Positions 8,704 to 36,205 of a stretch of 36,205 nucleotides of DNA are shown piece after piece. The notes beneath the pieces were generated by a model. It saw nothing but the letters and a program-made list of their open reading frames with translations, ran no database searches and had not been told where the DNA came from. A program made the position numbers and the translations under genes. How positions within the stretch are numbered: position 1 is the first letter of the stretch; the number at the start of each line of letters is the position of its first letter. Source of the stretch: a virus; IMG/VR virus record IMGVR_UViG_3300021256_000065. One strand, 5' to 3'.

Positions 8704-8739
8704 TAGGGCAGATGATTTAATCATCTGCCCTTTATTTTT
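8704..8739. terminator. Bidirectional rho-independent terminator between the convergent + and - operons
   Basis: An 11-bp stem 'GGGCAGATGAT / ATCATCTGCCC' with a 3-nt loop, flanked by A-runs and T-runs on both sides. Confidence 0.65.
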
Positions 8740-9296
8740 TACTCAGTTTTAACTGGTAAATTTGTTTTGATATCTCTTCCACCATTTGCATATCTAGCAA
8801 AATCAACCACTGCTTTAAATTGTTTTGGATCAAAACTATCAACAATTTTTGCAGCAGCTTCCGCATTAGCGGGTAAATCATTAATTATTTGATTAATGAT
8901 TGCACCAACACTGGTATTATTTACAAAACTTGTTTCCTTAATGTTATTAAGTTGTTCAAAAAGTTCATTATATTCATCTTCATTGATAACTTTAAAGAAC
9001 TCTTCATAAAAACCATTACTCTTTAAAGTATCATATAATTTAAATTCATCTTCTCTTTGTTTTTCAGTGAAAGAAATGTTTGTATACATATAAACTAAAT
9101 TTAATTCAAAATATAAATTTAATTTAAACTCATTATACATTCCATTCTACAAAGATTTTTGTAATGTAATCATTAATAAATCATATTTATCTTGCGCTGG
9201 CAAATACTGAAGAACTTCTACCTTTTGTCCACAAAAATCAAAAGTTTTTACTTCTGTATTTACCTTTAACTTCATATTAGCATAAGATACTTTCAT
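8739..9296 (-). CDS. hypothetical protein, last gene of the late operon, with one in-frame TAG at 9147-9149
   Basis: The ATG at 9296 follows 'AAGGAGAtattgat'. The frame is continuous through the TAG into track ORF 8739..9140 and ends on TGA. Confidence 0.6.
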
Positions 9297-9357
9297 ATCA
9301 ATATCTCCTTTTAACTCTTTTTATTCAATCATATTATATGTTAATTTTTTTTATTTG

Positions 9358-10749
9358 TCAAGAAAAATTAACATTATATCCAACTGTAATTTTTTTCTGA
9401 TGCAATTCATTTAAAATATTATAAATTCTATCTTGGACTCTTTTCTATTTATGATTTTTTAAATAAATATTTGAAATTTGATTTAATCCACTAATCTAAT
9501 GAAAATTATTTTCTAATATTTCTTGGATATTTTTAACATAAACATCTCCAGTAGCCCTATTTATAAAAATAAAAACATTCGCATTTTTTGTTCCTTGTTT
9601 TAAGGGGTTACCAGAAGAAAAAGCTTCAAATGCAACCTCCTTTTTTACAATTTCATCTAAATTAGCTCTCCCCGGTCTTGCACCAGTTGCATGCCCAGTA
9701 TGAGAAACATGCATATTTAACCAATGATTTCCAAAGTCTACATATGATTCATAATTATTTAAAAATACTAATGTAGAAAATAAATCTACATCTTGTAATT
9801 TTGTTTTTGCTCTTTCGCTAGCCTGAACCGCATAACTTTTTACAGAAGCAAAAATATCCTCATCTTGTATACTAATCTAAGCATCAACTTTATTTTGTGT
9901 TGACCCTAAAGTATATTTTGTGCCATCTTTTGTACTTGTATTTAAAAAATGCTTATTTCTTTTTTCTCCAATTATTAAATTTTTATCAAAAGTAATTTCA
10001 GTTCTTTCCATACCTTTTACAGTATCTTCTAAGAATTTTGCAACCTACTCTTCTGCAAGATTTGCAGCTGAATCATCACAAATTGCAACTAACATTTCTC
10101 CAAATCTACCGCCAATTGCATTAGCAGTATTTTCATAGCGTCTTTCGCCTATTGCCTTTTCAATTCCACCAATGGTAGAATCTTCTAAAGAGTCTTTAGA
10201 TAAATGAGTATACTATTCGTATAATTTTATTAAAGTTTGCAAATTATCCTCTGATTGAGGCTGTTCTTCTTGATTAATTTTATTAATTAAAGACTAAATT
10301 TCATTATATAAATTTTTTGCTTTTTCGCGTCTTGCTTCTAATTCTTCTGCAGATAAAGAAAAAGCCCAATTTTGAGTAGTAGAAAGCGGAACTTTCTTTT
10401 TATTTTCAGTAGTCCATCCATTACCCTGAGAAATATTAATTACTCTATGAGTTCCAGTAACACCAGATGCTCTTTCCTATAATAAAAGATAAATTTCGTT
10501 AATTAATTTTTGTTGATGAATTTTCCATTCACTTTTTTCTTTTTCAATATTATTTGAAGTATTAATTTTTAATCTTTCTCGTAATTTATTTAAAGCGCCT
10601 TCATCAACTTTAGGTGAATTAATTCTTATTCTATTATTAATAACATCCATCGAATAATTTGGAATATTACTATCAGGATCTCTTCTAGTTATTCCATATT
10701 TTTTATAATTTTTATAATATAAATGAATGTATTCTCCTAGTGCGCTCAT
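9358..10749 (-). CDS. hypothetical 463-aa protein with a His/Gly-rich motif 'GNHWLNMHVSHTGHATGARPGR' and 7 in-frame TAG codons
   Basis: Manual translation joins track ORFs 10477..10749 and 9496..9714 with the unlisted segments between them. RBS 'AAGGAGtaat'. In-frame TAGs occur at 10477, 10294, 10213, 10045, 9877, 9496 and 9436. The real stop is a TGA at 9358-9360. Confidence 0.6.
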
Positions 10750-10821
10750 TATTACTCCTTAAATTAAAAAATAGGGAGGATTATATAATTAACCCTCCCT
10801 ATTCTATTTTTATTTAATTAA

Positions 10822-11826
10822 TTATCCCTGTACTACATCATCTGTTTCAGTTCCTTCTCCAGTATGAGTTCCATTGACGGAATCATCAATAGATTCATCA
10901 ATATTGAAACCAGTTGGATGCGGGAATAATGGCTTAACTTCATTCTTAGCCTCGGTTGCATCATCAACTACCTGAATAGCACAAAGAACTTTATTAGTCT
11001 TATTAAAATATGTATATCCAGGGAATGCGTCCATAGTAAAGGTGAAGGTACTAGGATCACCAGTAGCTGCCATTGAGAAAGTAAAGTTAGACTGAATTTT
11101 AACATTCGGGAATGTTAAATTAGCAGGTAAATCTTTACCATCGGACTGACGTCTAAACAATGTATCTGCTTCTACATAGTAATAACCACCGAAAGTACCT
11201 GCATCAATCTGAAGCTCAGATACAGTACTAGATGCCTTAATTACATAATAATCAACCATCACTGGCCCGCTACTTGCAATAGCGGTCGCTTCTGCAACAC
11301 CAGTAATCTGTAATTTCTTACCACCAGTAGCCACAGACCAGCCTTTTAAGATTTCACCAGTAAGATCACCATACTCATCTAACTTAATAATATAAATAGG
11401 AGCTGTAGGACAAATTGTTTCACTTTGCTCTAAAGCATCCGTTAAATCAATTTCTAATGTATTATTAGTAGCTGTAATGGTAGCAGTTGCTGCAGCGATT
11501 GCATTAGTAGTCTGATGGAAATGAACAGATTCACTAGATAATCCTTTAATAACACCAGCACCAGAAAGCATAGCGAAACTAACAGGAGAAAGTAAGGCGT
11601 CTTCAACAGTAAATGTAAGAGTTTTCTAACCTTCCCAAGCAATTAAACGAGTATTACCACGACCACCTGTTGCATATACCGTGGTAGCCGCACCTTCCAT
11701 CGAAGATGTTTTTGCAGTATCAAGATAGAATACGGGCTGACCTTTTTCAAAGGTCTTATCACCAATTTTTTGCTGATTCTTTGCCTTAAATACTACATTA
11801 GCAATTTCACGCACACCAAATTTCAT
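10822..11826 (-). CDS. putative major tail / tube-like structural protein with one in-frame TAG at 11626-11628
   Basis: Joins track ORFs 11626..11826 and 10822..11571 in the same frame. RBS 'AAGGAGGAAATCCAA'. The composition is Thr/Ala/Gly-rich and beta-rich, and the stop is TAA. The functional assignment is a guess from gene position and composition. Confidence 0.45.
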
Positions 11827-11868
11827 TTGGATTTCCTCCTTATATTTTTATACAAAATCTTATTATTT

Positions 11869-12618
11869 TTATTGTTTTGAATCATCTTCATAGATGTCTT
11901 TTAACCAGTCCTCAGGATCCTACATACCAGTTGCCCCAGCAACTTTAAATCGTTCCCAAGTATCATAATGCAATTTTAATTCAAACCGATTAAATTCATC
12001 CATCAATTGATAAACAGTATAATTCATTAAATCATTTATATTTTTTTGCTATCCAACAGCAAGAATAGATATATATCGACTTAAAATAGAGATTTTTGTT
12101 TTTGGCGCCAGCTTCGCCCTTTTTTCTTGACCTCTTTTAAGTTTATTTGCAATTTTTTGTGATAAACTTCCACTTGGATTATACTATTTATTCTTTTCAT
12201 TCCTTAGGCAAAATATATCAATTAAAATCTATTTAAAATGATCAAAATTTTTTTCATCAATTCTAGATACATCATTAGTCTATGGATTTCGTAATTGTAT
12301 TGTCTAAGGTTCCAACCTAATTTCATAGGTTGGAAACAACAAAGCGAGAATAGATAAAACATTTAATCTAGCCTATTGAGATTCTAAATTTTTTTCTCGT
12401 ATCATTGTCATTATTATATTAAAATTTGACAAGTTCGATAAATCAATTTTGTCCTAAGTGGAAAAGACATCTTTATTAAAATTTAGTAATTCGCATCCAG
12501 GCCAAAACCGTGACTATGTAATATAAGCAATTTCTTTTAATCGCGGCTGATGAATTGTAATTCTAGCTTCTGGAAATGGAATATCATTTCCCGATAATAA
12601 AAGTAATTCATCAATCAT
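11869..12618 (-). CDS. hypothetical 249-aa protein with 10 in-frame TAG codons that contains a 10-bp perfect hairpin
   Basis: The ATG at 12616-12618 overlaps the TGA of the upstream ORF (an ATGA junction). The frame has no TAA or TGA until the TAA at 11869-11871. The six-frame ORF track shows only fragments here. Confidence 0.4.
12310..12335. other. 10-bp perfect hairpin (TTCCAACCTA-atttca-TAGGTTGGAA) inside the coding sequence
   Basis: Read directly. It lies in gene 11869..12618. Confidence 0.5.
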
Positions 12619-12959
12619 TTTTTATTAATCCATCCATCATAATTAGGCATTTTATCATGCTAACTTGGTAATACATCATCCGTCCCATGAACAGCAGAAT
12701 AAGTTAACGTATAACCAGAAAGAGTTTCATCAAGTACGAGCTAATTACAACCTGTAAATTGGAAAGTTCCAAGCCCAGATAACCGCGCATTATTAAGAAT
12801 CCCATCAATATATCCACAAATTTTTAATGGCCTAACTCTAAAATTACCAAGATCCCAACAATCAGTGTGACATAATACATCAATATAAACATTGCAATCT
12901 CTAAATTGTGGATTTGTTATAGTTGGTTTAAAATTATCAAAAGAAAAAATTAAATAACT
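12615..12959 (-). CDS. ORF encoding '...CHTDCWDLGNFRVRPLKICGYIDGILNNARLSG...WINKK' that has no canonical start codon
   Basis: The open frame is -1 relative to the upstream gene and ends in an ATGA overlap with the downstream gene start, which suggests translational coupling. It contains 2 TAG codons and no ATG, GTG or TTG before residue 100. Confidence 0.3.
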
Positions 12960-13238
12960 TTTAACTTCCTAATGCTAAGACATCATAATTTTTGGTTCAA
13001 ATTTTATATATCCTAGCTATCTTAATTTAGCCAAACTCATATCTTTAATCGCATTTTGATAAATAACACTGTTTGTATCTAAACAATCTTTTGTATTAAT
13101 AACTAGTAATTTTTTTAATTCATTACTATAAGGTTGACTTTCTATAAACAATTTTCGTAAAATTGTTTCTAAATCTTTTTCACATGATAAAAAAGATGAA
13201 GTAAAATCAACTGGTCTTAAAATTAAATCTCTTTTCAT
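12950..13238 (-). CDS. hypothetical protein with 3 in-frame TAG codons
   Basis: Track ORF 13017..13238 ends on a TAG. The frame continues for another 21 codons to a TAA at 12950-12952. Confidence 0.4.
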
Positions 13239-13263
13239 ATGTTTTATCTACTCCTTTTATCTC

Positions 13264-14247
13264 TTAAAGGGCAGTAATTGTTACATCTAATGTAATATCT
13301 TCTTGGCCCTCAACTCTATATATTAAAGTAAATACTCCCAATTCACCAATAGAAACATTCAATGGAATAATTTTTAAAGAGCTATTTAGTGAATCTTCTT
13401 TATCTTTCCATCTTATATACCAATGACCATTTTCAGCATTATGAATTTCATAATATGCCTTGCTGTATTGCTGAACTGCAGTTGGTCCATCAATATATGC
13501 GGCGGTCTAGTCAATAGGATTTTCTTGTCCAGACTCATCGTGCTCAGCAGCGACCGCATCCGCAATAGAATTTTCAAAAAATTCATCTAAGAATACTTGA
13601 ATAATACCATCTCCATAATAGGGATCTACACCAACTACTTGCCAAGTTTTTTCTGTATTATATCTTGGATCTAAAACTTTTATAGTTTTAAATCTTTCAA
13701 AATAATTATTTGTAGTTTCATCTGCAGCAATATACATTACTAATGAATAATTCAATGTATTCCATTCAATACCCGCTTTTTGAGTCCATTCAATAGAAGT
13801 CTCAACAGGTCCTCGAATATAAACCCAATATAAATTATCCCCAACTTTAACCTATTGATCACATCTTCTAATCTCAGATCTAAAATAAGCATCTTCTTCA
13901 AGATACTCTAAATACACAAGCCAATGTGTATCAGTTTCTTTCCATGTAAAAACATCTCCAGGTTTAATATCAATATCAATCTCCCCCTAAGACGTTTTTC
14001 CCATTCTTGGAGTATTTAAACAAATGTCTTTATATGGGATGGAAAGAATTTTATTATCATAAGCTGGTTTATTTTTATCTGGATTAATTAAACACCTAAA
14101 TTCTTTTCCATCTGATAATATCGCTGTGGCAGCTTGATAAGAATATAATAAAGCTTTTTTTAGACTTTTTAATTTATCATTAATAAATCTTTGCTCTTGA
14201 TTGCCACCTTGATATTTTAACCTTTTATTTAATAATTCTAAGGACAT
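13264..14247 (-). CDS. hypothetical structural protein, 327 aa, with 3 in-frame TAG codons
   Basis: Joins track ORFs 13987..14247 and 13507..13755 with the segments between them. TAGs occur at 13987, 13852 and 13507. RBS 'GGAGAttaataaa'. The stop is TAA at 13264. Confidence 0.55.
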
Positions 14248-14274
14248 TTTATTAATCTCCTTTAAAGAATTTTA

Positions 14275-14610
14275 TTATATTCTATCTCCATTTGATAATA
14301 TACTTTTTTGCAACTCATTCATTAATCCTAAACATTCAAAAATCGTTCTACGATAACAAAGAAAATCATCATCATCTATTAATGAATAAAGTCCTTCTAA
14401 TTTATTTAATAAGGGAAAGAAGATTTCTGAATAGCCGCAATTCATTAATCTTTGCATTCCCGCTAATTCTTCTAATATTGTTTGTAATGGTTTTTTCCAA
14501 TCAGCGCCCTATTCTCTACTAGGTAAAAGTTTATAAATTTGATTAATAAGATTTTGTAATCTATCATGAATTGTTAAATTATCCATAACAATATTATATT
14601 TTAATATCAT
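14275..14610 (-). CDS. hypothetical protein with one in-frame TAG at 14509-14511
   Basis: Extends track ORF 14275..14457 upstream through the TAG to the ATG at 14608-14610. Ends on TAA. Confidence 0.45.
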
Positions 14611-14615
14611 AATAA

Positions 14616-15209
14616 TTATCCCCCTGCCTTTTCATTGATAATTCTTTTATCAATTAAATCATCAACCGTGTAATTAACAGGAGTTCTAAGCAATCCAAGA
14701 GTAGATTTCATAATACCATTTTTATTAGGAGCCCTTCTTTTATATAAACGCTGAAGATGAAATCCTTCTCTTTCATAATCTTTCTTTAATTGAAGAAGCT
14801 TTTGCATATGATTAGCTTGAGAAGTAAATTTGAAATCAGGCCCGCTATATTTCATTCGTGTATTTTCTACACTAGCAAGCTGTTGACTTAACCATTCTAC
14901 AATCATATAAACAGCAAGAATATTTATTTCTTCATGAGTTAATGAATTATTAAAATATCCTTCATTATAAATAATTGCAGGCACTTCCTCATTATCACTT
15001 TCTATTCCTTGATAAGTTGATTCTTCTGTAACTTCAAGTAATTCATAATCCCATAAATTAATACGAGGAAATTCAAATTTTTCAATAGCAGAAAGTAAAA
15101 GCTGTTCTAACATTTTAAATGTATCTAATTCTGTTAATTCTAAATACATATCATCTGTAATTTTTGAAAGAAAGGAGTCATATACAAGTGAAAAAGCAGT
15201 TGTATTCAT
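14616..15209 (-). CDS. hypothetical head-proximal protein, possibly a connector or head-completion protein
   Basis: 197-aa ORF with RBS 'GGAGGtatatga', no TAG and a TAA stop. The function is a guess from gene position. Confidence 0.5.
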   Translation of the reverse strand: MNTTAFSLVYDSFLSKITDDMYLELTELDTFKMLEQLLLSAIEKFEFPRINLWDYELLEVTEESTYQGIESDNEEVPAIIYNEGYFNNSLTHEEINILAVYMIVEWLSQQLASVENTRMKYSGPDFKFTSQANHMQKLLQLKKDYEREGFHLQRLYKRRAPNKNGIMKSTLGLLRTPVNYTVDDLIDKRIINEKAGG

Positions 15210-15230
15210 TCATATACCTCCTATTAAAAA

Positions 15231-15818
15231 TTATTCTTTAGCAACTGGCTTATACCTACGTCCAGATGGCGCGGCGGCTGTATTATCAGATTTTATCGGA
15301 TTAGTTCTCCTCTTAGTAGTAGTTTGAGCATTCTCATTACTATCATTTTCTGTTTCACTATCATACTTTGTATTTTGAATTTCAATAGCTCTAGTAACAT
15401 CAAATCCTAATTTATCTTTAATAGCTTGACGCTTATTCATATCATTAAGCGGCATTTTAATTGATAAATCTTTAATCATATCTTTAATTACATCGGGAGC
15501 AAAATCTAAACAATCTAAAAATTGATCTAATGTACCAACTGTTAATAATTTTTTTACATCATCCTCTGAATAATGATATTCAGGCTCAGAATTTTGATTA
15601 AATAACGCAGCAACCACATTTTCATCAACAATTTCAAGATATTCTTTTAAAATTACATCTCCACCAGGGATGAAAGATAATTTTTCTAATTCATCAAATG
15701 AAATATCTTTACTTTCATGAGGATAAAAATTTCTATGAACTCCCAATTCAGGAACGTCATAACCAACAACGCCATTAAATTTATTAACGACTTTTACCAT
15801 TTCATTTTTGTCAATCAT
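15231..15818 (-). CDS. hypothetical structural protein
   Basis: 195-aa ORF with RBS 'AAGGAGttttaat', no TAG and a TAA stop. Confidence 0.5.
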   Translation of the reverse strand: MIDKNEMVKVVNKFNGVVGYDVPELGVHRNFYPHESKDISFDELEKLSFIPGGDVILKEYLEIVDENVVAALFNQNSEPEYHYSEDDVKKLLTVGTLDQFLDCLDFAPDVIKDMIKDLSIKMPLNDMNKRQAIKDKLGFDVTRAIEIQNTKYDSETENDSNENAQTTTKRRTNPIKSDNTAAAPSGRRYKPVAKE

Positions 15819-15897
15819 ATTAAAACTCCTTTTATCTCTTTATAAAAAAATAGGGGAGAAGAATTAAAATAATTATTCTCCCCTATTAAATAATATA

Positions 15898-28635: not shown

Positions 28636-28665
28636 AAAGATAACAAAAGAGAGGAGAACAAAGAA

Positions 28666-29106
28666 ATGACAAGAACAATCTTCTTCGATATGGATGGAAC
28701 AATCGCAGACCTTTACAAAGTAGACGGATGGTTGACCGACCTTATCAACAAAGATGTAAGACCTTACAGAGAAGCCAAAGTGATGCACAACATGCAAGTG
28801 CTTGCAAGACTTCTCAACAGACTTCAAAGGGAAGGAAACAAAATAGCAATCATCAGTTGGCTAGCAAAAAACAGCACAGAAGAATATGACGCAAGAGTAG
28901 CACAGACTAAAAAAGAATGGTTGAAAAAACATCTCACAAGCGTTAATTTCGATGAAATCCACATTGTAAAATATGGAACAAAAAAAGAAACATTCATTCA
29001 CACAGAAAACGACATTCTCTTCGACGATGAAGAGCAGAACAGAAACAACTGGACAGGAAAAGCTTACAACGTAAACAATATAATCGAAACACTGAAGAGC
29101 CTTTGA
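28666..29106 (+). CDS. HAD-superfamily hydrolase, 5'(3')-deoxyribonucleotidase-like
   Basis: The N-terminal 'FFDMDGTIAD' matches HAD motif I (DxDGT). RBS 'GAGAGGAGAACAAAG'. The ORF track start at 28573 reads through the promoter and is not used. A terminator follows at 29095-29121. Confidence 0.5.
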   Translation: MTRTIFFDMDGTIADLYKVDGWLTDLINKDVRPYREAKVMHNMQVLARLLNRLQREGNKIAIISWLAKNSTEEYDARVAQTKKEWLKKHLTSVNFDEIHIVKYGTKKETFIHTENDILFDDEEQNRNNWTGKAYNVNNIIETLKSL

Positions 29107-29308
29107 AAAGGCTCTTTTTTAATGCAGAATGTTAGTTATGACTAATTCTCGCGGCGAGCGAGATTGTTAAAAAAATAACAAACGCAGGCGGGCGCTTGAA
29201 GCCGAAAAATTTTATCACAGGTGGGTCGCACTTGTCAAGATGAAAAATTGCACAAAATAACAAATTAAATTTTTTCCCATTTTGTGCAATATTTTTTTCC
29301 AAAATGTG

Positions 29309-29337
29309 TTGACAAAAACCGGGTTATCGCTTATAAT
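29309..29337 (+). promoter_or_regulatory. sigma-A promoter TTGACA-17-TATAAT
   Basis: Read directly. 'CCGGG' occurs in the spacer. Confidence 0.5.
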
Positions 29338-29383
29338 TACATCAGAAACAAACAAGAGAGCTAAACAAAAGGAGGATAAAAAA

Positions 29384-29593
29384 ATGACAGGATACAAAGT
29401 TACAATGGAAATGAATGGAAGAAGAACCGACAGCTTTTCGGGATACATTAAAACAATGGAAGAAGCCAAAGATTATTGCGAATGGCTTGGTAAAGAAAAT
29501 GAACCGAAAATCATCACCTGCAACAAGAAAAGAATTACAAGATGGTTTAACTGGTATGAAACTAAAAAGGCATGGGAAAATCTTGAGGATTAA
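29384..29593 (+). CDS. hypothetical early cassette protein (69 aa)
   Basis: RBS 'AAAAGGAGGATAAAAAA'. Stops on TAA, followed by the hairpin 'GAGGATTAAAAATCCTC'. Confidence 0.5.
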   Translation: MTGYKVTMEMNGRRTDSFSGYIKTMEEAKDYCEWLGKENEPKIITCNKKRITRWFNWYETKKAWENLED

Positions 29594-29623
29594 AAATCCT
29601 CAAGATTTTTTTATTGCATCTGC

Positions 29624-29680
29624 ATTGTTAAAAAATTAACAAACGTCTGTTTGCATCTAGATTGTTAATTTTTTAACAAT
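29624..29680. promoter_or_regulatory. Two adjacent copies of the palindromic motif: ATTGTTAAAAAATTAACAAAC and TTGTTAATTTTTTAACAA
   Basis: Sites at 29624-29644 and 29663-29680, upstream of the promoter at 29768. Confidence 0.45.
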
Positions 29681-29767
29681 TTTCGCTGGACCGCGCACTG
29701 CCACATTGCACAAAGGGTCTTTTGTTTTTGAGATTTTTTTTGTGTATTTTTTTCTTCATGTAATAGG

Positions 29768-29796
29768 TTGACTTTTCCGGTTAAATAGCTTATAAT
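29768..29796 (+). promoter_or_regulatory. sigma-A promoter TTGACT-17-TATAAT with the conserved leader
   Basis: Read directly. Confidence 0.5.
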
Positions 29797-29842
29797 CAAA
29801 TCATCAAAGAGAGATAGACATCAAAAGAAAGGAAAAAACATC

Positions 29843-30028
29843 ATGACATTATTATTCGCAATCTCAACCGCAATCTTCATTATCAGCTCTTTTATCATTT
29901 TCATCTTCTCTTGGAAAATTACTGAAAAAACTCAAGACATCTTAAGAATTGTTGCTCTTGTTAGCGCAATAATGATAATCGTATCACTATTTATTTTTCC
30001 ATTTATTCAAGTATTTTTTTTAAAATAA
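29843..30028 (+). CDS. small membrane protein with two transmembrane helices
   Basis: Sequence 'MTLLFAISTAIFIISSFIIFIFSWKI...IVALVSAIMIIVSLFIFPFIQVFF'. Confidence 0.5.
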   Translation: MTLLFAISTAIFIISSFIIFIFSWKITEKTQDILRIVALVSAIMIIVSLFIFPFIQVFFLK

Positions 30029-30031
30029 TGA

Positions 30032-30060
30032 TTGACAATCTAGTCAATCTCTGTTATAAT
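30032..30060 (+). promoter_or_regulatory. sigma-A promoter TTGACA-17-TGtTATAAT
   Basis: Read directly. Confidence 0.5.
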
Positions 30061-30090
30061 CAAATTATCAAAAGAAAGGAGATATAAACA

Positions 30091-30222
30091 ATGAAAACTA
30101 CAAGAGGTTGGTACATCTTCAAGGACGGCACGCAGGCATGGTTCAATGGTCTCTCCGCAAGAGAGAAGAGGAACGAAGTCATAAAGCACGGCGAGATTGT
30201 CAAATTCATCCCCACACCTTGA
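30091..30222 (+). CDS. small basic protein (43 aa)
   Basis: RBS 'AAAGGAGATAT'. The TGA stop is followed by the terminator 'GAGGCTCtacatGAGCCTCTTTTTT' at 30221-30246. Codon usage is richer in GC than the neighbouring cassettes. Confidence 0.45.
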   Translation: MKTTRGWYIFKDGTQAWFNGLSAREKRNEVIKHGEIVKFIPTP

Positions 30223-30336
30223 GGCTCTACATGAGCCTCTTTTTTATGTGCAGAATATTGATACTTACATTAAACGTATTCAAAAGTTAAAAGTTGGTGA
30301 TTTTGATTGTTAAAAAAATAGCTTTCAAAAAAAGTG

Positions 30337-30365
30337 TTGACATTATTCCGGACATCTGATATAAT
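30337..30365 (+). promoter_or_regulatory. sigma-A promoter TTGACA-17-TGaTATAAT
   Basis: Read directly. Confidence 0.5.
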
Positions 30366-30395
30366 TAAATCATCAAAAGAAAGGAGATATAAAAA

Positions 30396-30647
30396 ATGTT
30401 ATACAGAATTGACAGAGAATTTGATGAATACATTGGTGCAGGAGAATACGAAACAAAAAAATATTATCAGTATGTATGTGGTTTACATAATGTTGGTAAA
30501 GCTTGCCTTGATACAGATGAGAACGATAGAATTGTTCGAATTGTAAAATTGAATTTTTCTATTAAAGGTTTGATTGTATGCTTGAAAAAAACTTGTTCTT
30601 CTCAGTATAATCAAACAAGTACAGAAAAATTTTCAAAAAAGTGTTGA
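30396..30647 (+). CDS. hypothetical early cassette protein
   Basis: RBS 'AAAGGAGATAT'. The stop overlaps the next -35. Confidence 0.45.
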   Translation: MLYRIDREFDEYIGAGEYETKKYYQYVCGLHNVGKACLDTDENDRIVRIVKLNFSIKGLIVCLKKTCSSQYNQTSTEKFSKKC

Positions 30648-30672
30648 CAAACCAGATGAAATATGATAATAT
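30644..30672 (+). promoter_or_regulatory. sigma-A promoter TTGACA-17-TGaTAATAT
   Basis: Read directly. Confidence 0.45.
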
Positions 30673-30701
30673 TAAATCATCAAAAGAAAGGAGAAACAAA
30701 A

Positions 30702-30878
30702 ATGAACGAAAGAGAAAAGCTTTTAGATAGGATGATTAGAATCTACGGTTTTGAACATGAACTGGTCATCGAGTTCGCGGGGATGATTGAAAACCCCAGC
30801 TATAAGACCGAAATCCTTGAAACCTTGGTGAGATGCCACGAGGCGTGCCCACAGATTACAGACAAAGAGGACCTATAG
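30702..30878 (+). CDS. hypothetical early cassette protein (58 aa). It ends on a TAG that lies in the loop of a terminator hairpin.
   Basis: RBS 'AAAGGAGAAAC'. The TAG at 30876-30878 sits within 'GAGGACCTATAGGCCCTCTTTTTC'. Read-through would add 59 residues across two GC-rich hairpins. Confidence 0.45.
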   Translation: MNEREKLLDRMIRIYGFEHELVIEFAGMIENPSYKTEILETLVRCHEACPQITDKEDL

Positions 30879-30925
30879 GCCCTCTTTTTCTATGTGCGGC
30901 GCGCTTTCTGCCGGCGCGCGCCGAA
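30867..30925 (+). terminator. Twin terminator: a hairpin plus T-run, followed by the GC-rich hairpin CGGCGCGC...GCGCGCCG
   Basis: Read directly. The same twin structure recurs at 31895-31953. Confidence 0.55.
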
Positions 30926-31117
30926 AAATCCATTCTATCATACCTGTCACCTTTTGTCAAGGGAAAAATTGCACAAATTTTCATCGAAATTTTATCCCAA
31001 AATTCGTCACTTTTTCAAAAGTGAAAAATCAGTCTTTTCTTGTTAAAATTTTGACAATCGCCTAAAAATGAAAAATCGGTGATTTTGATTGTTAAAAAAA
31101 TAACTTTCAAAAACATG

Positions 31118-31146
31118 TTGACAACCGGGCAGATTGGGTTTATAAT
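31118..31146 (+). promoter_or_regulatory. sigma-A promoter TTGACA-17-TATAAT (paralogous to the promoter at 32223)
   Basis: The -35 is 'TTGACAACCGGG'. The leader 'AAGGTTACAAACAAGGAAGGGAGA' is shared with the cassette at 32223. Confidence 0.5.
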
Positions 31147-31177
31147 AAGGTTACAAACAAGGAAGGGAGATCCACCA

Positions 31178-31645
31178 ATGAAGAAAATCAGCACTCTTAC
31201 CAATATCGAATACATGTTCGACCCGAACCGCTCCGGCGCTAAGTATACACTAGACGGCACACACTATATGAACAACGGAGAGTTTGCCGAAGTCGCTACA
31301 AAGGTGGCTCTTGGATATGAACCCCATAAGGATGCTAACACCGCATATAGCGAAGGGAGTGACATCCCTGAACTCCGAGCAAGCGTTAAATCCAGTAAAG
31401 CAACCTTAGTCAATATGAAACTTGCGGATGGATTTGAAGAGTCAATTGAAGTTTACTTCAAAAATACTCATAGCACTTGCTTCATCTACACCGTCCTTTT
31501 GGATGACATGACAACTCTCTATATAATGGACGCCGCTGAATTTAGAGAGTTCATCCACAGATTTGCTACCCTCAATGAGAGAGGCTTCATCCGCTTCAAA
31601 GCTACCAGCGGAAAGACGATCCAGTGGCTAGAGGAGAGGGTATAA
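31178..31645 (+). CDS. hypothetical early cassette protein (155 aa) with GC-rich codon usage
   Basis: The real ATG is at 31178, after 'AAGGAAGGGAGA'. The track ORF start at 31079 runs through the promoter and is not used. Confidence 0.5.
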   Translation: MKKISTLTNIEYMFDPNRSGAKYTLDGTHYMNNGEFAEVATKVALGYEPHKDANTAYSEGSDIPELRASVKSSKATLVNMKLADGFEESIEVYFKNTHSTCFIYTVLLDDMTTLYIMDAAEFREFIHRFATLNERGFIRFKATSGKTIQWLEERV

Positions 31646-31681
31646 ACCCTCTCCCCAACAAAATTTTTTCAAAATTAACAC

Positions 31682-31710
31682 TTGACAAATATTAAATCAT
31701 CTGTTATAAT
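31682..31710 (+). promoter_or_regulatory. sigma-A promoter TTGACA-17-TGtTATAAT
   Basis: Read directly. Confidence 0.5.
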
Positions 31711-31740
31711 TAAATCATCAAAGAACAGGAGAACAAAACA

Positions 31741-31896
31741 ATGACAAAAGAACAAATTAAAAACATGATGGAAGCAACAGGACAAAAACTTATTTATGAG
31801 GATGACTACAATCTTGAATATGAAAATCCTATGTATGGAGAAACTATTAATTTTGAATTTAACTCAGAAGGGTTATTCTATAAAATTTATAGCTGA
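31741..31896 (+). CDS. small early cassette protein (51 aa)
   Basis: RBS 'AACAGGAGAAC'. TGA stop, then the twin terminator. Confidence 0.45.
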   Translation: MTKEQIKNMMEATGQKLIYEDDYNLEYENPMYGETINFEFNSEGLFYKIYS

Positions 31897-31953
31897 GGGC
31901 GGAAGCCCTCTTTTTTATGCGCGGCGCGCTGGTGGCCGCACCAGCGCGTTTTT
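31895..31953 (+). terminator. Twin terminator: GAGGGCggaaGCCCTC plus T-run, then CGCGCTGGTGgccgCACCAGCGCG plus T-run
   Basis: Read directly. Confidence 0.6.
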
Positions 31954-32043
31954 CCATTGTACCATACCCATCGGGTTTTGTCAATTGACATTTTGCACAA
32001 ATTTTAATGCTAAAAATATCCTAAAATTCGTCATTTTTTCAAA

Positions 32044-32215
32044 AGTTAAAAATTGGTAGATTTCTTGTTAAAAATTTAACAATCGACTAAAAGTGAAAAA
32101 TCGGCAAAGTTCTTGTTAAACTTTTAACAATCTACCTACCACCCCTTGTTAAATTCTTAACAAGGGAAAAGTTAAAAATCGGCGGTTTTGACTTTGTTAA
32201 AAAAATAACTTTTAA
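32044..32215. repeat. Tandem array of four palindromic TTGTTAA-N4/5-TTAACAA sites, each preceded by a 'AAAGT(G/T)AAAAATYGG' half-unit. It lies directly upstream of the promoter at 32223.
   Basis: Palindromes at 32065-32082, 32113-32130 and 32144-32165 (CCTTGTTAAATTCTTAACAAGG), plus the half-site 32196-32211. A two-copy version of the same array sits at 31020-31100. Confidence 0.55.
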
Positions 32216-32222
32216 AAAGGGG

Positions 32223-32251
32223 TTGACAACCGGAGTAATAGGGCTTATAAT
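32223..32251 (+). promoter_or_regulatory. sigma-A promoter TTGACA-17-TATAAT
   Basis: 'TTGACAACCGGAG' plus the shared leader. Confidence 0.5.
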
Positions 32252-32282
32252 AAGGGTACAAACAAGGAAGGGGGACAACCTA

Positions 32283-32744
32283 ATGACTACCAACACCGCA
32301 CTCCACATCAATCTGATTGACCGCTACAATGCCGTTGCTTACACCCATGAGTATGTATGGGGCTTCACCTACAAAAAGAATGTCTATATGGCAATCACCG
32401 ACGCAACTGTGATGCCGTTCGTTACCTGCCTTGACAAGGCAAGCCGTGGTGCTGGATATGCACTCCGCTTCTGCCCCAACACTCAGCAGAAAATCGCTCT
32501 GCTTCCATATGCGACCCTCCTTTGCTCTGAAGCCTACTTCAATGAGGTAGTCGCCGATAGCAAGTATAATAAGGGCGAAATCTTTGAAAAAATGGTTACC
32601 GAACATTTCGGGCAGACTTGGGAAAAGGATAATGTCCCCTTCACAGAAGACGGCGATATCACAGTCAACGGTACTGCATATCAAATCAAGTTCCAGAAAG
32701 CCACCTTCTGCAACGAAAAGAGCATAGCCAACCTTGAAAAATAA
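32283..32744 (+). CDS. hypothetical early cassette protein (153 aa) with GC-rich codon usage
   Basis: ATG follows 'AAGGAAGGGGGA'. The track start at 32223 is spurious. Confidence 0.5.
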   Translation: MTTNTALHINLIDRYNAVAYTHEYVWGFTYKKNVYMAITDATVMPFVTCLDKASRGAGYALRFCPNTQQKIALLPYATLLCSEAYFNEVVADSKYNKGEIFEKMVTEHFGQTWEKDNVPFTEDGDITVNGTAYQIKFQKATFCNEKSIANLEK

Positions 32745-32785
32745 GGTTGGCTATATAGCCCGGGCGCTTGAAAAAAAATTTCATA

Positions 32786-32814
32786 TTGACATTTTAAAAA
32801 AACTATTGTATAAT
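32786..32814 (+). promoter_or_regulatory. sigma-A promoter TTGACA-17-TGTATAAT
   Basis: Read directly. Confidence 0.5.
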
Positions 32815-32841
32815 GTATATAGAAAGTGAGGGAAGAACAAA

Positions 32842-33102
32842 ATGAAAACTTTTATATTCGCTTTTTTCTTGACTATCGCAGGAATCATCGGAACATGGGA
32901 ATCTGAATATTCTAGACCCGTAATCTGCACCTACTATGACCCCTGCACTAATATTTCTACTTTCACAGACAATAGCGGGAATGATTGGGAATGGGAAAAT
33001 GAAAATGATGAAGTTTTTGAAATCGGAAAGTCCTATACCATCATCATGGATGATAATCATTCTTCTTCTATCTATGATGACATCATTAAAAAAATAAAAT
33101 AA
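32842..33102 (+). CDS. small protein with an N-terminal hydrophobic segment, either secreted or membrane-anchored
   Basis: 'MKTFIFAFFLTIAGIIG' followed by an acidic soluble part. RBS 'AGTGAGGGAAGAAC'. Confidence 0.45.
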   Translation: MKTFIFAFFLTIAGIIGTWESEYSRPVICTYYDPCTNISTFTDNSGNDWEWENENDEVFEIGKSYTIIMDDNHSSSIYDDIIKKIK

Positions 33103-33118
33103 AAAAATAAAAAACCTA

Positions 33119-33147
33119 TTGACAAACTAGAAAAGAAAGTTTATAAT
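33119..33147 (+). promoter_or_regulatory. sigma-A promoter TTGACA-17-TATAAT
   Basis: Read directly. Confidence 0.5.
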
Positions 33148-33178
33148 AGACTTATCAAAAGAAAGGAAGAAAAAAATT

Positions 33179-33409
33179 ATGACGAACGTATCCTATGATA
33201 TTTACCGCAACAATCAGAAAGTAAAAAATGTAACTACCTACGCTGAGGCGGTTGCTTCTGTTAAAGAGCTGGGCGGGCGCGGGACTTTCAAGACTGTTTA
33301 CACTAGCTTCAACCCCGAAGACACCGCAGAAAAGCGTGAATACGCCCATTCTCACGCTCAGAAAGTACATGAAGCGCTGAAGCGTAAAGCAGGGGTTAAG
33401 AAACATTAA
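33179..33409 (+). CDS. small basic protein (76 aa)
   Basis: RBS 'AAAGGAAGAAAAAAATT'. GC-rich codons. Confidence 0.45.
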   Translation: MTNVSYDIYRNNQKVKNVTTYAEAVASVKELGGRGTFKTVYTSFNPEDTAEKREYAHSHAQKVHEALKRKAGVKKH

Positions 33410-33457
33410 CCCCTGCACCCCCACAAATAAGAATACAATAGAAAGGAAGTAAAAAAA

Positions 33458-33679
33458 ATGAAAGTATCTATTAACTATTCAATTCCTGTTTCAGCGGTTA
33501 TTGTTTTTGATGAAATTTTCCGTTGTTCTGAACTGACTGACGGCTCTTATCCCCTGCAGAGATACATTGATAAAGCTGAAGAACTTATGCATATGTACGG
33601 TTTTGAATGGGCAGATATCATTGATGATGATGACGGTACTGTGATTGCTCAAATTGAAAGAGAGGACGATGATGAATGA
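33458..33679 (+). CDS. small, strongly acidic protein
   Basis: C-terminus 'ADIIDDDDGTVIAQIEREDDDE'. RBS 'AAAGGAAGTAAAAAAA'. It is co-transcribed with 33179. Confidence 0.45.
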   Translation: MKVSINYSIPVSAVIVFDEIFRCSELTDGSYPLQRYIDKAEELMHMYGFEWADIIDDDDGTVIAQIEREDDDE

Positions 33680-33765
33680 TACTAATGGTATTGTTGATGA
33701 TGACAGCGGCCTTCCTTATAGTTTTACTGAATGATGATGGCCCAAATAGACCGAGGTTTACATGA
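33676..33765 (+). CDS. 29-aa hydrophobic micro-ORF coupled by an ATGA overlap to the acidic protein gene
   Basis: 'MILMVLLMMTAAFLIVLLNDDGPNRPRFT'. Its stop lies in the loop of the terminator at 33749-33780. Confidence 0.25.
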   Translation: MILMVLLMMTAAFLIVLLNDDGPNRPRFT

Positions 33766-33820
33766 CCTCGGTCATTTTTCGCCCGGGTCGCATGTTAAAA
33801 AAATAACTAACAAAGACCGC

Positions 33821-33849
33821 TTGACATTCTTTTATTGTTTTGATATAAT
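33821..33849 (+). promoter_or_regulatory. sigma-A promoter TTGACA-17-TGaTATAAT
   Basis: Read directly. Confidence 0.5.
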
Positions 33850-33875
33850 CATTATCAGAAAGGAGATGTAACACA

Positions 33876-34367
33876 ATGAAATTTTTGAATGAAGATTTAC
33901 TTGTTTCCTTAGTAGATGATTTTCTTGAGCCTTTTGGCCTTGACTCAGATTTTTCAAGTGATTTTTCATACGACCCTGAAGATGAAAGAGTTTATTTTTC
34001 AATCGCTTTTTCTGAAAGGTCTGATAGACTTTTTAAAGAGTATGTTGAAAAAACTTTTCATTTCAATGTTCCACACATTTTTATGATTAGTTTGTTGCAT
34101 GAGGTTGGACATTTTTTCACCCTACATACATTTTCTAAAATGAGATTAGAAGCTGTCCACTCAGCAAAAAATCTCATTGAAGAAGCGTTAAAAATGGATG
34201 ACGATGATGAAATCTATTCTTTGTATTTTGATTTAAGCATCGAAAAGGTTGCAACGGCTTGGGCGGTTGACTATTACAGAAAAAACATGAAACGCTGTGA
34301 AGATTTTTATTCAAAGTTTGTAAATGCCCTTAGAACGGAATATAAAAGGCTGGGAGTGACTGAGTAA
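33876..34367 (+). CDS. putative zinc metallopeptidase (HExxH motif)
   Basis: 'ISLLHEVGHFFTLHTF' contains HEVGH. 163 aa. RBS 'AAAGGAGATGT'. Confidence 0.4.
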   Translation: MKFLNEDLLVSLVDDFLEPFGLDSDFSSDFSYDPEDERVYFSIAFSERSDRLFKEYVEKTFHFNVPHIFMISLLHEVGHFFTLHTFSKMRLEAVHSAKNLIEEALKMDDDDEIYSLYFDLSIEKVATAWAVDYYRKNMKRCEDFYSKFVNALRTEYKRLGVTE

Positions 34368-34424
34368 GTCACCCCTAACCGCCCGGGCAGCGAGATTGTT
34401 AAAAAAATAACTTTTAAAATGGTA

Positions 34425-34453
34425 TTGACATTTGTTCCTTTGTGTGGTATAGT
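34425..34453 (+). promoter_or_regulatory. sigma-A promoter TTGACA-17-TGgTATAGT
   Basis: Read directly. Confidence 0.45.
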
Positions 34454-34479
34454 ATAACCATGAAAGAGAGGTAAACAAA

Positions 34480-34821
34480 ATGGCTCGTAAAATTTTCTTC
34501 GCAAGAGATTGGGACAAAGTTGGTAGAAATTATTATGAAATTTATACCACTGTTTGTATGGGATATACTTTTACTGTTGGAAAAGGAATTGAAAGAGACC
34601 CGAACTTTTCTATCTTTTATGTAACTAATGATGGACAGCATGACCATTACGAAATCCTTAATGTTTACATTACTGCAGGCGATACCATCGAAGATACACA
34701 GAAAGGCGTTCTTACTACTCTCAAAAGAGAAATGAAAAGAGTTATTCAAAGAGGGTTGACAACTCGTGTAAAAAGTGGTATGCTTACTATAGAACAGATA
34801 GAAAGGTGGGTAACAAAATGA
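34480..34821 (+). CDS. hypothetical early cassette protein
   Basis: RBS 'AGAGAGGTAAAC'. Confidence 0.5.
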   Translation: MARKIFFARDWDKVGRNYYEIYTTVCMGYTFTVGKGIERDPNFSIFYVTNDGQHDHYEILNVYITAGDTIEDTQKGVLTTLKREMKRVIQRGLTTRVKSGMLTIEQIERWVTK

Positions 34822-34956
34822 CAAATTTAAAAGATTTTATGTTATTTCAAATAGGCTCCTATCAAGTTATGGGATTATTCAGTAAAAAAGCTGATACGAA
34901 ACTCAAACGTATTTTACATTATTTGCCTGTATTGATTATTAAGAAAGGATAACAAA

Positions 34957-35196
34957 ATGTATAAACTCTATTCAAGAATAAGTGACCATGAAACAATCCT
35001 TGAACTGTGGGGCGCATCAACCAAACATCCTGATAGCGTGTTTTTCTTTTCAGAATTTGAACCAAGCCCATGGTTTGACAGGATTGACCAAATTGTTCCT
35101 TGGCTTCTGGAATGCGCAAGCAAAATGAACTGGCCTATCCATTCTTACGAACTGGCAAAATGGGCGTGCATGATTTACGAGTCATGGCGCGGTTAG
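34957..35196 (+). CDS. hypothetical early cassette protein
   Basis: RBS 'AAGAAAGGATAAC'. Confidence 0.45.
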   Translation: MYKLYSRISDHETILELWGASTKHPDSVFFFSEFEPSPWFDRIDQIVPWLLECASKMNWPIHSYELAKWACMIYESWRG

Positions 35197-35218
35197 AATT
35201 AATGAAAGGAGATACATC

Positions 35219-35350
35219 ATGCAGGAACTTTTCGATCTTTTCTATCTCTATGATTACATGGTTATGCACACTGTTGATGAAGAATATGAGGAATACATAC
35301 ACCTGCGTCGTTACGTTGCAAAGCTGATTGAGGGGTTGGGGGCTGAGTAA
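35219..35350 (+). CDS. small protein (43 aa)
   Basis: RBS 'AAAGGAGATACATC'. The 3' end carries the shared element 'GGGGGCTGAGTAAGTCCCC'. Confidence 0.4.
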   Translation: MQELFDLFYLYDYMVMHTVDEEYEEYIHLRRYVAKLIEGLGAE

Positions 35351-35434
35351 GTCCCCACTAACTTTGCCGGGCGGCCCGTCGATTTACACAAAAGGATCCA
35401 TATTTTCAATTTGATTTTTGTGCAACATTACGTC

Positions 35435-35463
35435 TTTACAAATCAAGAAACCTTTGCTATAAT
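35435..35463 (+). promoter_or_regulatory. promoter TTTACA-17-TATAAT driving a roughly 170-nt transcript that carries only an 8-codon mini-ORF
   Basis: Read directly. Downstream are the hairpin GAGGGaaacaaaaagCCCTC and an RBS plus 'MRMPRDWI'. Confidence 0.4.
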
Positions 35464-35652
35464 CTAGTTACAAGGTGAGGGAAACAAAAAGCCCTCAAAA
35501 CTCAAAAGGGTTAGACAACAAGGCGCGCTGAGTCTAGCTTTTGGATTGAAAGGAGACAAGCAAAATGAGAATGCCGAGAGATTGGATTTAATCCCTTTGG
35601 CTGAGTAGGAATGCCACTGTATGATTTGTAAAAAATAAAAATAAAAAACCTC

Positions 35653-35681
35653 TTGACAAATAGGGCGACTTGTGGTATGAT
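35653..35681 (+). promoter_or_regulatory. sigma-A promoter TTGACA-17-TGgTATGAT driving a 6-codon leader ORF (MMKIKK) and hairpins
   Basis: 'AAAGGAGATAGATAAGCCC ATGATGAAAATTAAGAAATGA', then GCGCT...AGCGC and GGTAGCGGTGG...CCACC hairpins and an A7T8 tract. Confidence 0.4.
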
Positions 35682-35855
35682 CTAATCACAGGTTAAGAAA
35701 GGAGATAGATAAGCCCATGATGAAAATTAAGAAATGAGCGCTTAGACTTGGGCATGGAGCGCTATGACATAAATTAAAAGGACTTGTCCATGGTAGCGGT
35801 GGATTGGCCACCCACCGAACTACCGAAACTTAAAAAAATTTTTTTTAAAAAAAGC

Positions 35856-35884
35856 TTGACAACTGAATAAGGAACTGATATAAT
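35856..35884 (+). promoter_or_regulatory. sigma-A promoter TTGACA-17-TGaTATAAT with the conserved leader
   Basis: Read directly. Confidence 0.5.
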
Positions 35885-35933
35885 AAAATCATCAAAAAGA
35901 TAAACAAATCATTTAAAAAAGGAGATGTATACT

Positions 35934-36205
35934 ATGACAAAACTTACCTACGCTATGGCTATCGACTTCGCAACCGCAATCATCACCAATGGAACTGCTG
36001 ATTTCAACGGCTTCTCCGCTGATGAGTACCTTGAGAAGCTGGAGTCCCTCAAGGCTTCCCTTGCAAGACGCAACGGCAGTGAGAGAAAACCCACCAAGAC
36101 CCAGCAGGCAAATGAGGGTCTGAAAGAAGATATGTGGGCTTACGTTTCTGAGAATGGCGCAAAGCGTGCCAATGAGGTCGCTGAACACTTATCTTCTTTC
36201 AGACC
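35934..36205 (+). CDS. hypothetical early cassette protein, 3'-partial (runs off the window), with GC-rich codon usage
   Basis: ATG follows 'AAAAGGAGATGTATACT'. The frame is open to the window end. It is not in the ORF track because it has no stop. Confidence 0.5.
   Translation, partial: MTKLTYAMAIDFATAIITNGTADFNGFSADEYLEKLESLKASLARRNGSERKPTKTQQANEGLKEDMWAYVSENGAKRANEVAEHLSSFR

Follow-up and report, generated by a model that had tools for sequence, protein, structure and literature searches.

The 36.2 kb of viral DNA held as IMG/VR record IMGVR_UViG_3300021256_000065 (referred to throughout as the window, meaning this whole stretch) carries a late operon in which the stop codon TAG lies in frame in most genes. 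Comparison with related phages suggests that this TAG is a glutamate (Glu) sense codon, read by a phage transfer RNA with the anticodon CUA, tRNA(CUA), that has a Glu-like body. In the reading preferred here, early genes free of TAG would be expressed first, the suppressor would then enable the messages that contain TAG, and the genes of high-copy products would avoid the codon. As a joint statement this is given a probability of roughly 0.75. Recoding of TAG in late genes, phage-encoded suppressors and a temporal switch of code have already been published for crAss-like, Lak and other phages and for phAss-1, and the model of the original prediction, in which a phage suppressor accumulates over time and gates late or low-copy genes, is thus a known one. 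What we consider on balance probable, and undescribed for any virus or prokaryote, is a code with TAG as Glu in a herbivore-gut clade, evolved in one family beside standard-code lineages and lineages that read TAG as glutamine (Gln), these being 50–77% identical in the capsid-like protein.

The window represents about 36 kb of the genome (about 134 kb) of a siphophage with SPbeta/EF1-like replication genes that belongs to the wider phAss-1 family. It has a GC content of about 32% and consists of three blocks delimited by changes in GC skew. The first (1–8569, + strand) is concerned with replication and nucleotide metabolism and encodes a DnaE/YorL-type polymerase, guanylate kinase, NrdD, NrdG and dUTPase. 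The second is a morphogenesis operon on the − strand (8739–25242), convergent with the replication block and called the late operon below. The third is a run of small + strand genes that extends from 25382 to the window end, divergent from the late operon, and its label as early is backed by eleven perfect TTGACA-17-TATAAT promoters found by sequence match at 28607–35884 (+). Another strain of this phage is represented by IMGVR_UViG_3300021399_000007 (133,873 bp; 98.7% identity over 20 kb), window position x corresponding to about x + 31,434 of that genome, and a stitched 94 kb or so of the near-identical genome was examined. Loci fetched from relatives are given L numbers, L235 being the locus in the near-identical genome. 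The source habitat is the gut of a ruminant or other herbivore, and the relatives come from rumen, deer and rabbit gut assemblies. These are mostly, but inconsistently, binned with Bacilli/Bacillota. The labels of metagenome-assembled genomes (MAGs) were rejected as an unreliable guide to the host, whole-phage contigs being binned into unrelated taxa. The host probably belongs to the Bacillota, as for phAss-1.

In-frame TAGs were counted in open reading frames (ORFs) bounded by TAA or TGA only and were normalized to GAA + GAG, normalization to Gln codons having been dropped once TAG was found aligned with Glu. The codon is partitioned by gene class, as the original prediction had it: the late operon holds 51 in-frame TAGs in 5290 codons, the replication block 3 in 2801, and the early block (25382–35350) no internal TAG in 28 ORFs supported by a ribosome-binding site (2362 codons, 214 of them for Glu), where the original prediction spoke of roughly 25 ORFs. 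Out of frame, 58 TAGs occur within the same 28 ORFs, so the trinucleotide itself is neither missing nor simply rare. Fisher's tests on TAG/(GAA + GAG) give p = 1e-9 for early against late genes (p = 2e-7 if two terminal early TAGs are counted as in frame) and p = 2e-6 for replication against late genes. Also as predicted, the few TAGs of the replication block are distributed as none in the 1051 codons of dnaE, one in nrdD and two in nrdG, and the codon is present in the genes for terminase (8), portal (3) and the regulator-like protein (6) and in the genes 11869–12618 and 12615–13238 (9 and 5). Five late genes have no TAG (15898–16962, 17587–18918, 16980–17567, 15231–15818 and 14616–15209), giving 0/123 against 51/324 for the remaining late genes (Fisher p = 4e-8). 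With p values of 1e-9 to 4e-8, and with the TAG poverty of three late genes repeated across about 30 genomes (see below), the bias is not the small-sample effect that had been feared.

The late frames are interrupted by TAG alone, and all late-operon genes stop at TAA or TGA. Once TAG is read as sense, 17 long genes emerge from the − strand block, and the terminase, portal and virion proteins match PHROG families end to end. Conserved genes broken only by TAG that give full-length orthologs on read-through are the pattern of a recoded stop codon, here concentrated in late and structural genes, with the early genes in standard code. The early ORFs end in TAA (14), TGA (12) or TAG (2). One of the two TAGs (30876–30878) ends ORF 30702–30878 (+) and is enclosed in a terminator-like hairpin, with a GC-rich one behind it; the former folds as proposed (−30 kcal/mol, z = −3.6), read-through would add 55 codons instead of the 59 residues proposed, and the gene is missing from the 98.7%-identical relative. 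This TAG had been taken as the only one in the early block, but a second is found at 35194–35196, in an ORF with a good ribosome-binding site (34957–35202, +) that ends TAG-AAT-TAA (35194–35202). The triplet is TGG in the closest relatives, which points to a recent change two codons before the natural end, and the case shows that TAG arises in early genes and survives only where termination is harmless. One further ORF with a TAG end, 31796–32059, was rejected as a gene, having no ribosome-binding site and crossing two terminators. On the scale of the genome, the freedom of the early block from internal TAG holds as proposed, but not as an absolute rule: the partition is graded, and to the right of the window in the near-identical genome a few TAG-bearing genes lie beside the tRNA array. 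Automatic ORF picking over the 94-kb stitched sequence let in spurious early ORFs, and its early-block count of 13 TAGs is an upper bound.

The late operon was fetched from about 40 IMG/VR relatives, and the per-gene comparisons cover about 30 genomes. Columns with TAG in at least one genome were counted among the columns holding Glu or TAG, which limits pseudo-replication from shared ancestry. Only three genes are TAG-poor across the clade: the capsid-like gene 15898–16962 (2/53 columns, 33 orthologs), 16980–17567 (2/45, 35 orthologs) and 10822–11826 (4/54). The scaffold-like gene 17587–18918 (37/197), 15231–15818 (12/74) and 14616–15209 (24/46) are TAG-free in this lineage only. The claim that the most abundant structural genes lack TAG thus stands for all five genes in the window, and across the clade for the capsid-like gene and 16980–17567 but not for the other three. 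Much higher values are found for the terminase (48/78), 22752–24089 (75/120), the regulator-like gene 24139–25242 (42/83) and 11869–12618 (41/70), and the TAG share of Glu columns is graded from 4% in the capsid-like gene through 19% (scaffold-like) and 44% (portal) to 62% in the terminase. Together the three TAG-poor genes have 8/152 columns with TAG against 431/1025 in the other late genes (p = 3e-22), and in 28/30 genomes TAG is scarcer in the set than elsewhere in the operon (Wilcoxon p = 4e-6). The three have the highest GC in the operon and consensus ribosome-binding sites, and a strong terminator hairpin directly follows two of them, the capsid-like gene and 10822–11826; such features commonly mark virion genes of the highest expression. 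Individual TAG sites turn over fast, some 20–40% of those in the window being common to relatives at 80–87% identity. In the replication block, only 1/309 Glu columns of dnaE is ever TAG across 74 orthologs.

For the identification of the encoded amino acid, X replaced TAG in the query as well as in the database. The codons of relatives that lie opposite window TAGs are GAA (452), TAG (265), GAG (118), CAA (59), GAT (52), AAA (46) and CAG (19). GAA, the commonest partner, is two mutational steps away from TAG, which argues for equivalence and not for mutational neighbourhood. In family alignments the majority residue at 46 window TAG sites is E at 37 and Q at 3, a distribution that does not fit genetic code 15 (TAG = Gln). 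Nor does peritrich-type code 30, where TAA is also Glu, since TAA ends 36/54 window genes. E is the residue in 141/174 of the TAG-holding columns that are at least 80% conserved, and the log-likelihood of the TAG-opposite profile is −1225 as E vs −2252 as Q. The same is seen in the replication block. The TAG column of nrdD (3792–6086, +, TAG at 3894–3896), the gene for an anaerobic ribonucleotide reductase (PDB match 8p23, E = 1e-115), has 17 E, 7 TAG and 1 Q in 36 orthologs. That of the first TAG in nrdG (6652–7137, +, TAGs at 6763–6765 and 6997–6999), which encodes the radical-SAM activase, falls in the motif C-Q-N-P-[TAG]-T-W-D and has 24 E, 4 TAG and 1 Q in 29 orthologs; the E. coli PflA residue at this position is D.

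Relatives that use the standard code provide an outgroup. Eighteen were taken from MAG contigs with no in-frame TAG in 9–17 late orthologs, and opposite window TAGs (n = 392) they have E 196 times (50%), D 32, K 31 and Q 29 (7%). The 50% of E fits the background opposite window E (52% E), unlike that opposite window Q (44% Q). E is invariant in these relatives at codons 319, 460 and 558 of the large terminase (TerL) and at sites in 12615–13238, 14275–14610 and 10822–11826, the single TAG site of the last being E in 11/11. As a control of the method, the TAGs of L030, L035, L037, L317, L319 and phAss-1 themselves fall opposite Q (in one example 35 Q vs 7 E; for phAss-1, 7 Q vs 2 E), while window TAGs lie opposite E and not Q in L030, L035 and L037 (19 vs 2). 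The alignment method can therefore distinguish Glu from Gln. Judged from such alignments, the members of the phage family differ in code: some use the standard one, others read TAG as Gln (among these sisters is IMGVR_UViG_3300035499_000522) and others again as Glu, and the protein divergence between some of these lineages is only 25–40%.

No tRNA is present in the window or in 0–84 kb of the near-identical genome, a region followed through dnaE, primase, ligase and kinase genes over its first 73 kb, and an Rfam scan of the window and its flanks gave no RNA family. An array of at least 13 tRNAs is located at about 85.9–92 kb of the near-identical genome, on the early-gene strand and some 21 kb beyond the right end of the window. 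It includes tRNA(CUA) at L235 15419–15492 (64.7 bits with the Rfam tRNA model), so the phage-encoded suppressor that had been postulated exists in the 98.7%-identical genome. The arrays of almost all relatives also contain a tRNA(CUA), usually beside genes for tRNA-Glu and tRNA-Met. Isotype hidden Markov models (HMMs) were built from 313 phage-array tRNAs with the anticodon masked. For the L235 suppressor Glu scores best (41.7 bits), with Asp next at 32.2; among the suppressors of the clade Glu nearly always ranks in the top two, and Gln never comes out best. In leave-one-out tests the models made 3 false Glu calls among 293 non-Glu tRNAs. The suppressors and the phage tRNA-Glu alike have a 3-bp D stem and a long D loop (AAGYGGTYTAA), and the 4-nt variable loop of tRNA-Glu is also found in some suppressors of relatives (L240, L259). 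At positions 1-72, Glu-type suppressors are paired G-C or C-G; in phage tRNA-Gln and in phAss-1 suppressor no. 2, position 1 is A or U and the D loop is shorter. The body of the suppressor thus appears tRNA-Glu-like, and these features are supportive rather than conclusive for Glu. A choice between Gln and Glu could be set by few tRNA features, such as the 1-72 pair and the D loop. Next to the suppressor there is no ribozyme at the Rfam gathering threshold, and inspection of ORFs only, over about 94 kb of the genome, revealed neither release factor RF2 nor a dedicated aminoacyl-tRNA synthetase.

Several other elements of the arrays deserve mention. A tRNA with anticodon UUA (L235 16785–16857; 51 bits with Rfam, 33% GC, weak acceptor stem) is the only one of its kind among 385 tRNAs in the fetched loci. 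Four-base anticodon (atca) tRNAs are called by ARAGORN beside tRNA-Glu at L241 13780–13854, L244 16119–16193 and L248 15242–15316 and could be quadruplet decoders or miscalls. The array of one relative contains a tmRNA gene (L257 17046–17326; Rfam 102 bits; tag peptide ADNYTYQMAA). In the tRNA-array block of the near-identical genome, a TAG-free gene of 315 aa (L235 12581–13528), distinct from the regulator-like gene, has motifs that by eye resemble sigma-70 region 2. One of the three tRNA(CUA) genes of phAss-1 (L123 3443–3533) spans 91 nt, has an extended variable arm and best matches the Ser isotype profile, so that phAss-1 may not decode TAG exclusively as Gln.

A scheme of infection can be proposed from these data. 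The host RNA polymerase would transcribe the early block from sigma-70 consensus promoters, and probably also the tRNA array. The early genes contain no internal TAG and would therefore be read correctly under the host code; with their host-type promoters this agrees with the earlier suggestion that they stay decodable by the host. The tRNA(CUA) would then be made and probably charged by the host glutamyl-tRNA synthetase (GluRS). In hosts that lack glutaminyl-tRNA synthetase (GlnRS) and use the indirect Gln-tRNA pathway known from Bacillota, charging by GluRS would leave Glu on any suppressor that GatCAB does not amidate. We infer the charging with Glu by a host enzyme, as we do the timing of the suppressor and its role as a gate. 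TAG-containing messages could next be completed, among them those for the regulator-like protein, terminase, portal and most tail-proximal products. As a gate, the best candidate is the gene at the head of the late operon, the regulator-like one (24139–25242, −), which has a host-type promoter yet a first TAG already at codon 9 (25216–25218) and five more. The products needed in the highest copy number, the capsid-like protein, that of 16980–17567 and the tail-like protein of 10822–11826 (hundreds of copies), would keep TAG out of their genes, likely because decoding by a single suppressor in competition with release factor RF1 is slow and leaky.

Other explanations assign the TAGs a different meaning or origin. 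If there were no recoding, the TAGs would be true stops and the late genes pseudogenes, assembly errors or split genes, in keeping with the many short ORFs into which the late operon breaks under the standard code. This has next to no probability, for only TAG, never TAA or TGA, interrupts the frames, proteins of full length with PHROG matches, terminase and portal among them, result from read-through, a tRNA(CUA) exists, and the same pattern recurs at differing positions in dozens of independent assemblies. That the host itself reads TAG as Glu and the phage merely follows is very improbable. Code-matched phages do exist for code-25 bacteria and the MAG bin labels of the relatives are scattered, but the early genes have no internal TAG and two of them end in it, the suppressor is carried by the phage, and close relatives with the standard code or with TAG = Gln are hard to reconcile with coding driven by the host. 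Ordinary genetic code 15, with Gln at TAG and the usual recoding of late genes, has somewhat more in its favour and is still unlikely. Gln is the only amino acid reported for TAG in phages in the searchable open literature, it was reported for phAss-1, the closest described phage, where the test used here agrees, and some Q does lie opposite window TAGs. With unbiased masking, however, the E:Q ratio opposite window TAGs is about 7:1 and the commonest partner, GAA, lies two mutational steps off, the conserved NrdG motif has E, sister lineages give Q by the same method, and the suppressor never scores best as tRNA-Gln.

A less favoured explanation, though one with a real chance of being correct, accepts both the recoding and the suppressor and differs from the scheme above only on selected gating. 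TAG would drift in as a near-synonymous Glu codon once the suppressor is present and would be purged according to expression and essentiality. The graded densities (4% in the capsid-like gene to 62% in the terminase), the fast turnover of TAG sites and the weak positional bias are what such passive drift would give, and the TAG-poor genes have the highest GC, the strongest ribosome-binding sites and, in two of three, a terminator of their own. A model of tolerance plus efficiency fits the graded pattern and the fast turnover about as well as gating does. More gate-like is the regulator-like gene, which combines a host-type promoter and an early TAG with a TAG density that ranks among the higher ones in every lineage, and in published analyses of other clades lysis and structural families are biased towards the recoded codon.

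A number of points weigh against the preferred reading, in which TAG is Glu and the suppressor gates late messages. The accumulation of the suppressor over time, and gating by it, belong to the conditional part of the scheme. TAG density is graded, with some replication and tRNA-array-block genes carrying TAG; it correlates weakly with gene GC (rho = −0.49, p = 0.056), and TAG columns are mildly shifted to the 5′ half of genes (Kolmogorov–Smirnov p = 6e-4). The Glu assignment is comparative, drawn from alignments, and with about 9% Q and about 7% K opposite window TAGs a minor ambiguity may remain. The suppressor is seen in a near-identical relative, outside the window. The isotype HMMs are 83% accurate, some suppressors of the family score Asp or Ile first and Glu second, and plain similarity does not discriminate, identities of the suppressor to other tRNAs being uniformly uninformative at 65–73%. 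The tRNA(UUA), ochre-suppressor-like, could, if functional, read TAA, the main stop, and also TAG. Finally, the capsid identity of 15898–16962 is putative, its predicted model having a mean pLDDT of 55 and no significant fold match.

The late operon genes, all on the − strand, are labelled from PHROG matches and synteny, and the names capsid, scaffold and regulator are provisional. The regulator-like gene matches PHROG 5767 'sigma factor' (E = 5e-44) and, despite this label, has no match in Pfam or NCBIfam. It is preceded by a sigma-70-type promoter, TTGACT-17-TATAAT with TG (25275–25303, −), that is a near-consensus extended −10 promoter. Next is a PHROG 3314 gene (22752–24089, 6 TAGs) with an N-terminal zinc ribbon, which overlaps the TerL start and is a possible small terminase, and then TerL itself (21019–22755). 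Between terminase and portal lies an HNH homing-endonuclease gene with 1 TAG (20601–20957). The portal protein (19000–20568; PHROG 2739, E = 2e-81) is followed by the scaffold-like acidic protein (17587–18918; PHROG 3313), TAG-bearing in relatives, and a head-module protein (16980–17567; PHROG 35301). The putative major capsid protein (15898–16962; PHROG 4088) has the operon maximum of GC (39.6%) and a TAAGGAGG ribosome-binding site, and a terminator hairpin with U-tract lies directly 3′ of its gene (15849–15887, −; −19.6 kcal/mol, z = −3.2). Profile searches with it gave nothing in Pfam, NCBIfam or the PDB. The alignment behind its AlphaFold model is shallow (sequences 80–95% identical), and Foldseek with this poor model gave no match below E = 0.1, about half of the 20 best weak matches being HK97-fold capsids or encapsulins. 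The protein is 52% identical to a phAss-1 protein and about 35% to its SPbeta-like/Enterococcus EF1-like counterparts. The two most TAG-dense genes, 11869–12618 and 12615–13238, have TAG as 36–42% of Glu codons. The virion structural protein of 10822–11826 (PHROG 2729, 1 TAG) is the likely major tail protein and its gene also has a terminator hairpin directly 3′ (10768–10805, −; −21.7 kcal/mol, z = −3.75). A gene of 463 aa with 7 TAGs (9358–10749, −) has no ortholog in any relative and no PHROG or Pfam match; its place is taken by unrelated DNA in the 98.7%-identical genome, so that it looks like a lineage-specific cassette. A perfect TTGACA-17-TATAAT promoter stands inside the operon at 9333–9361 (−), just upstream of the last gene (8739–9296).

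In the replication block, the DnaE/YorL-type polymerase gene (1–3156, +) is 5′-truncated at the window edge, and its product is about 40% identical in amino acids to those of Enterococcus EF1-type and SPbeta phages. The polymerase match is about 1 kb longer than that of the window in L055 and L101 (94–98% identical), L066, L096 and L104, which suggests an inserted intron, intein or homing element. A fourth TAG of the block (8111–8113) is upstream of the likely dUTPase start, and a bidirectional terminator (8705–8731) separates the convergent replication and late modules. In one relative a GIY-YIG-type gene with 8 TAGs (L124 2151–3068) lies inside an otherwise TAG-poor replication module; mobile endonuclease genes seem to be TAG-rich wherever they are located. 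The early block is mosaic, 30398–31911 being replaced in the 98.7%-identical genome and the flanking segments 93–98% identical. Very GC-rich palindromic hairpins (GCGGCGCGC...GCGCGCCG) occur in this AT-rich block at 30895–30925 and 31923–31950 (+), in or beside the mosaic segments that differ from the near-identical relative.

Recoding of TAG to Gln, code 15, is known from crAss-like, Lak, Garnet, Topaz and other gut phages (Yutin 2021, PMC7886860; Borges 2021 preprint, 10.1101/2021.08.26.457843; Peters 2022, PMC9523058). Like these, the window phage concentrates TAG in late structural genes and keeps early and most replication genes in standard code; a phage-encoded tRNA(CUA), low GC and a preference for TAA stops are shared as well, and a temporal code-switch model was proposed there. 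Unlike them, its TAG aligns with Glu. The crAss-like capsid gene, moreover, carries recoded stops and is used as a marker, whereas the capsid-like gene here is almost TAG-free clade-wide. Phage phAss-1, of the proposed genus Phassvirus, has a probable Bacillota host and reads TAG as Gln (Babkin 2023, PMC10607447). It shares with the window phage the broad family, a genome of about 135 kb, a similar late operon, TAG in terminase, portal and tail genes and a large tRNA array with tRNA(CUA). There is, however, no nucleotide-level match (megablast of 25 kb), the proteins are about 38–52% identical, and similarity falls short of that of the genus Phassvirus. Two phAss-1 suppressors adjoin nrdD. In the window phage the gmk–nrdD interval is empty, and the suppressor belongs to the tRNA array past the early block. 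Suppressor no. 2 of phAss-1 resembles tRNA-Gln in its short D loop and U1, unlike those of the window clade. The SPbeta-like and Enterococcus EF1-like phages resemble the window phage in their YorL/DnaE-type polymerase (about 40% identity), capsid-like protein (about 35%) and genome size (127–142 kb) but use the standard code, as was checked for EF1. A parallel in meaning is the peritrich ciliate nuclear code (NCBI table 30), in which TAA and TAG are Glu. That code shares TAG as Glu, and it differs in being eukaryotic, nuclear and genome-wide with TAA reassigned too, whereas here TAA is the main stop and TAG is sense in part of the genome. Among phages with a code other than that of their host, Borges et al. 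found TAG-to-Gln and TGA-to-Trp alone (10.1101/2021.08.26.457843), and the searchable open literature holds phage assignments of TAG = Gln, TGA = Trp and, in phages of code-25 hosts, TGA = Gly, with TAG/UAG = Glu in phages not found there.

The finding has consequences for annotation and for the evolution of codon meaning. Default re-annotation of these genomes with code 15 would place a wrong residue at about 11% of the Glu positions of late proteins, which affects structure prediction and proteomic searches. The suppressor tRNA may itself be of use as a Glu-inserting amber suppressor. The conserved avoidance of TAG in the capsid-like and tail-like genes provides a measurable signature of the cost of decoding by a suppressor. 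A TAG = Glu clade would, if true, break the rule that phages reassign only TAG to Gln and TGA to Trp. This pattern has been explained by a natural tendency of GlnRS and tryptophanyl-tRNA synthetase to charge suppressors. A single family with standard-code, Gln and Glu members at short distances would form a natural series for the change of meaning of a codon.

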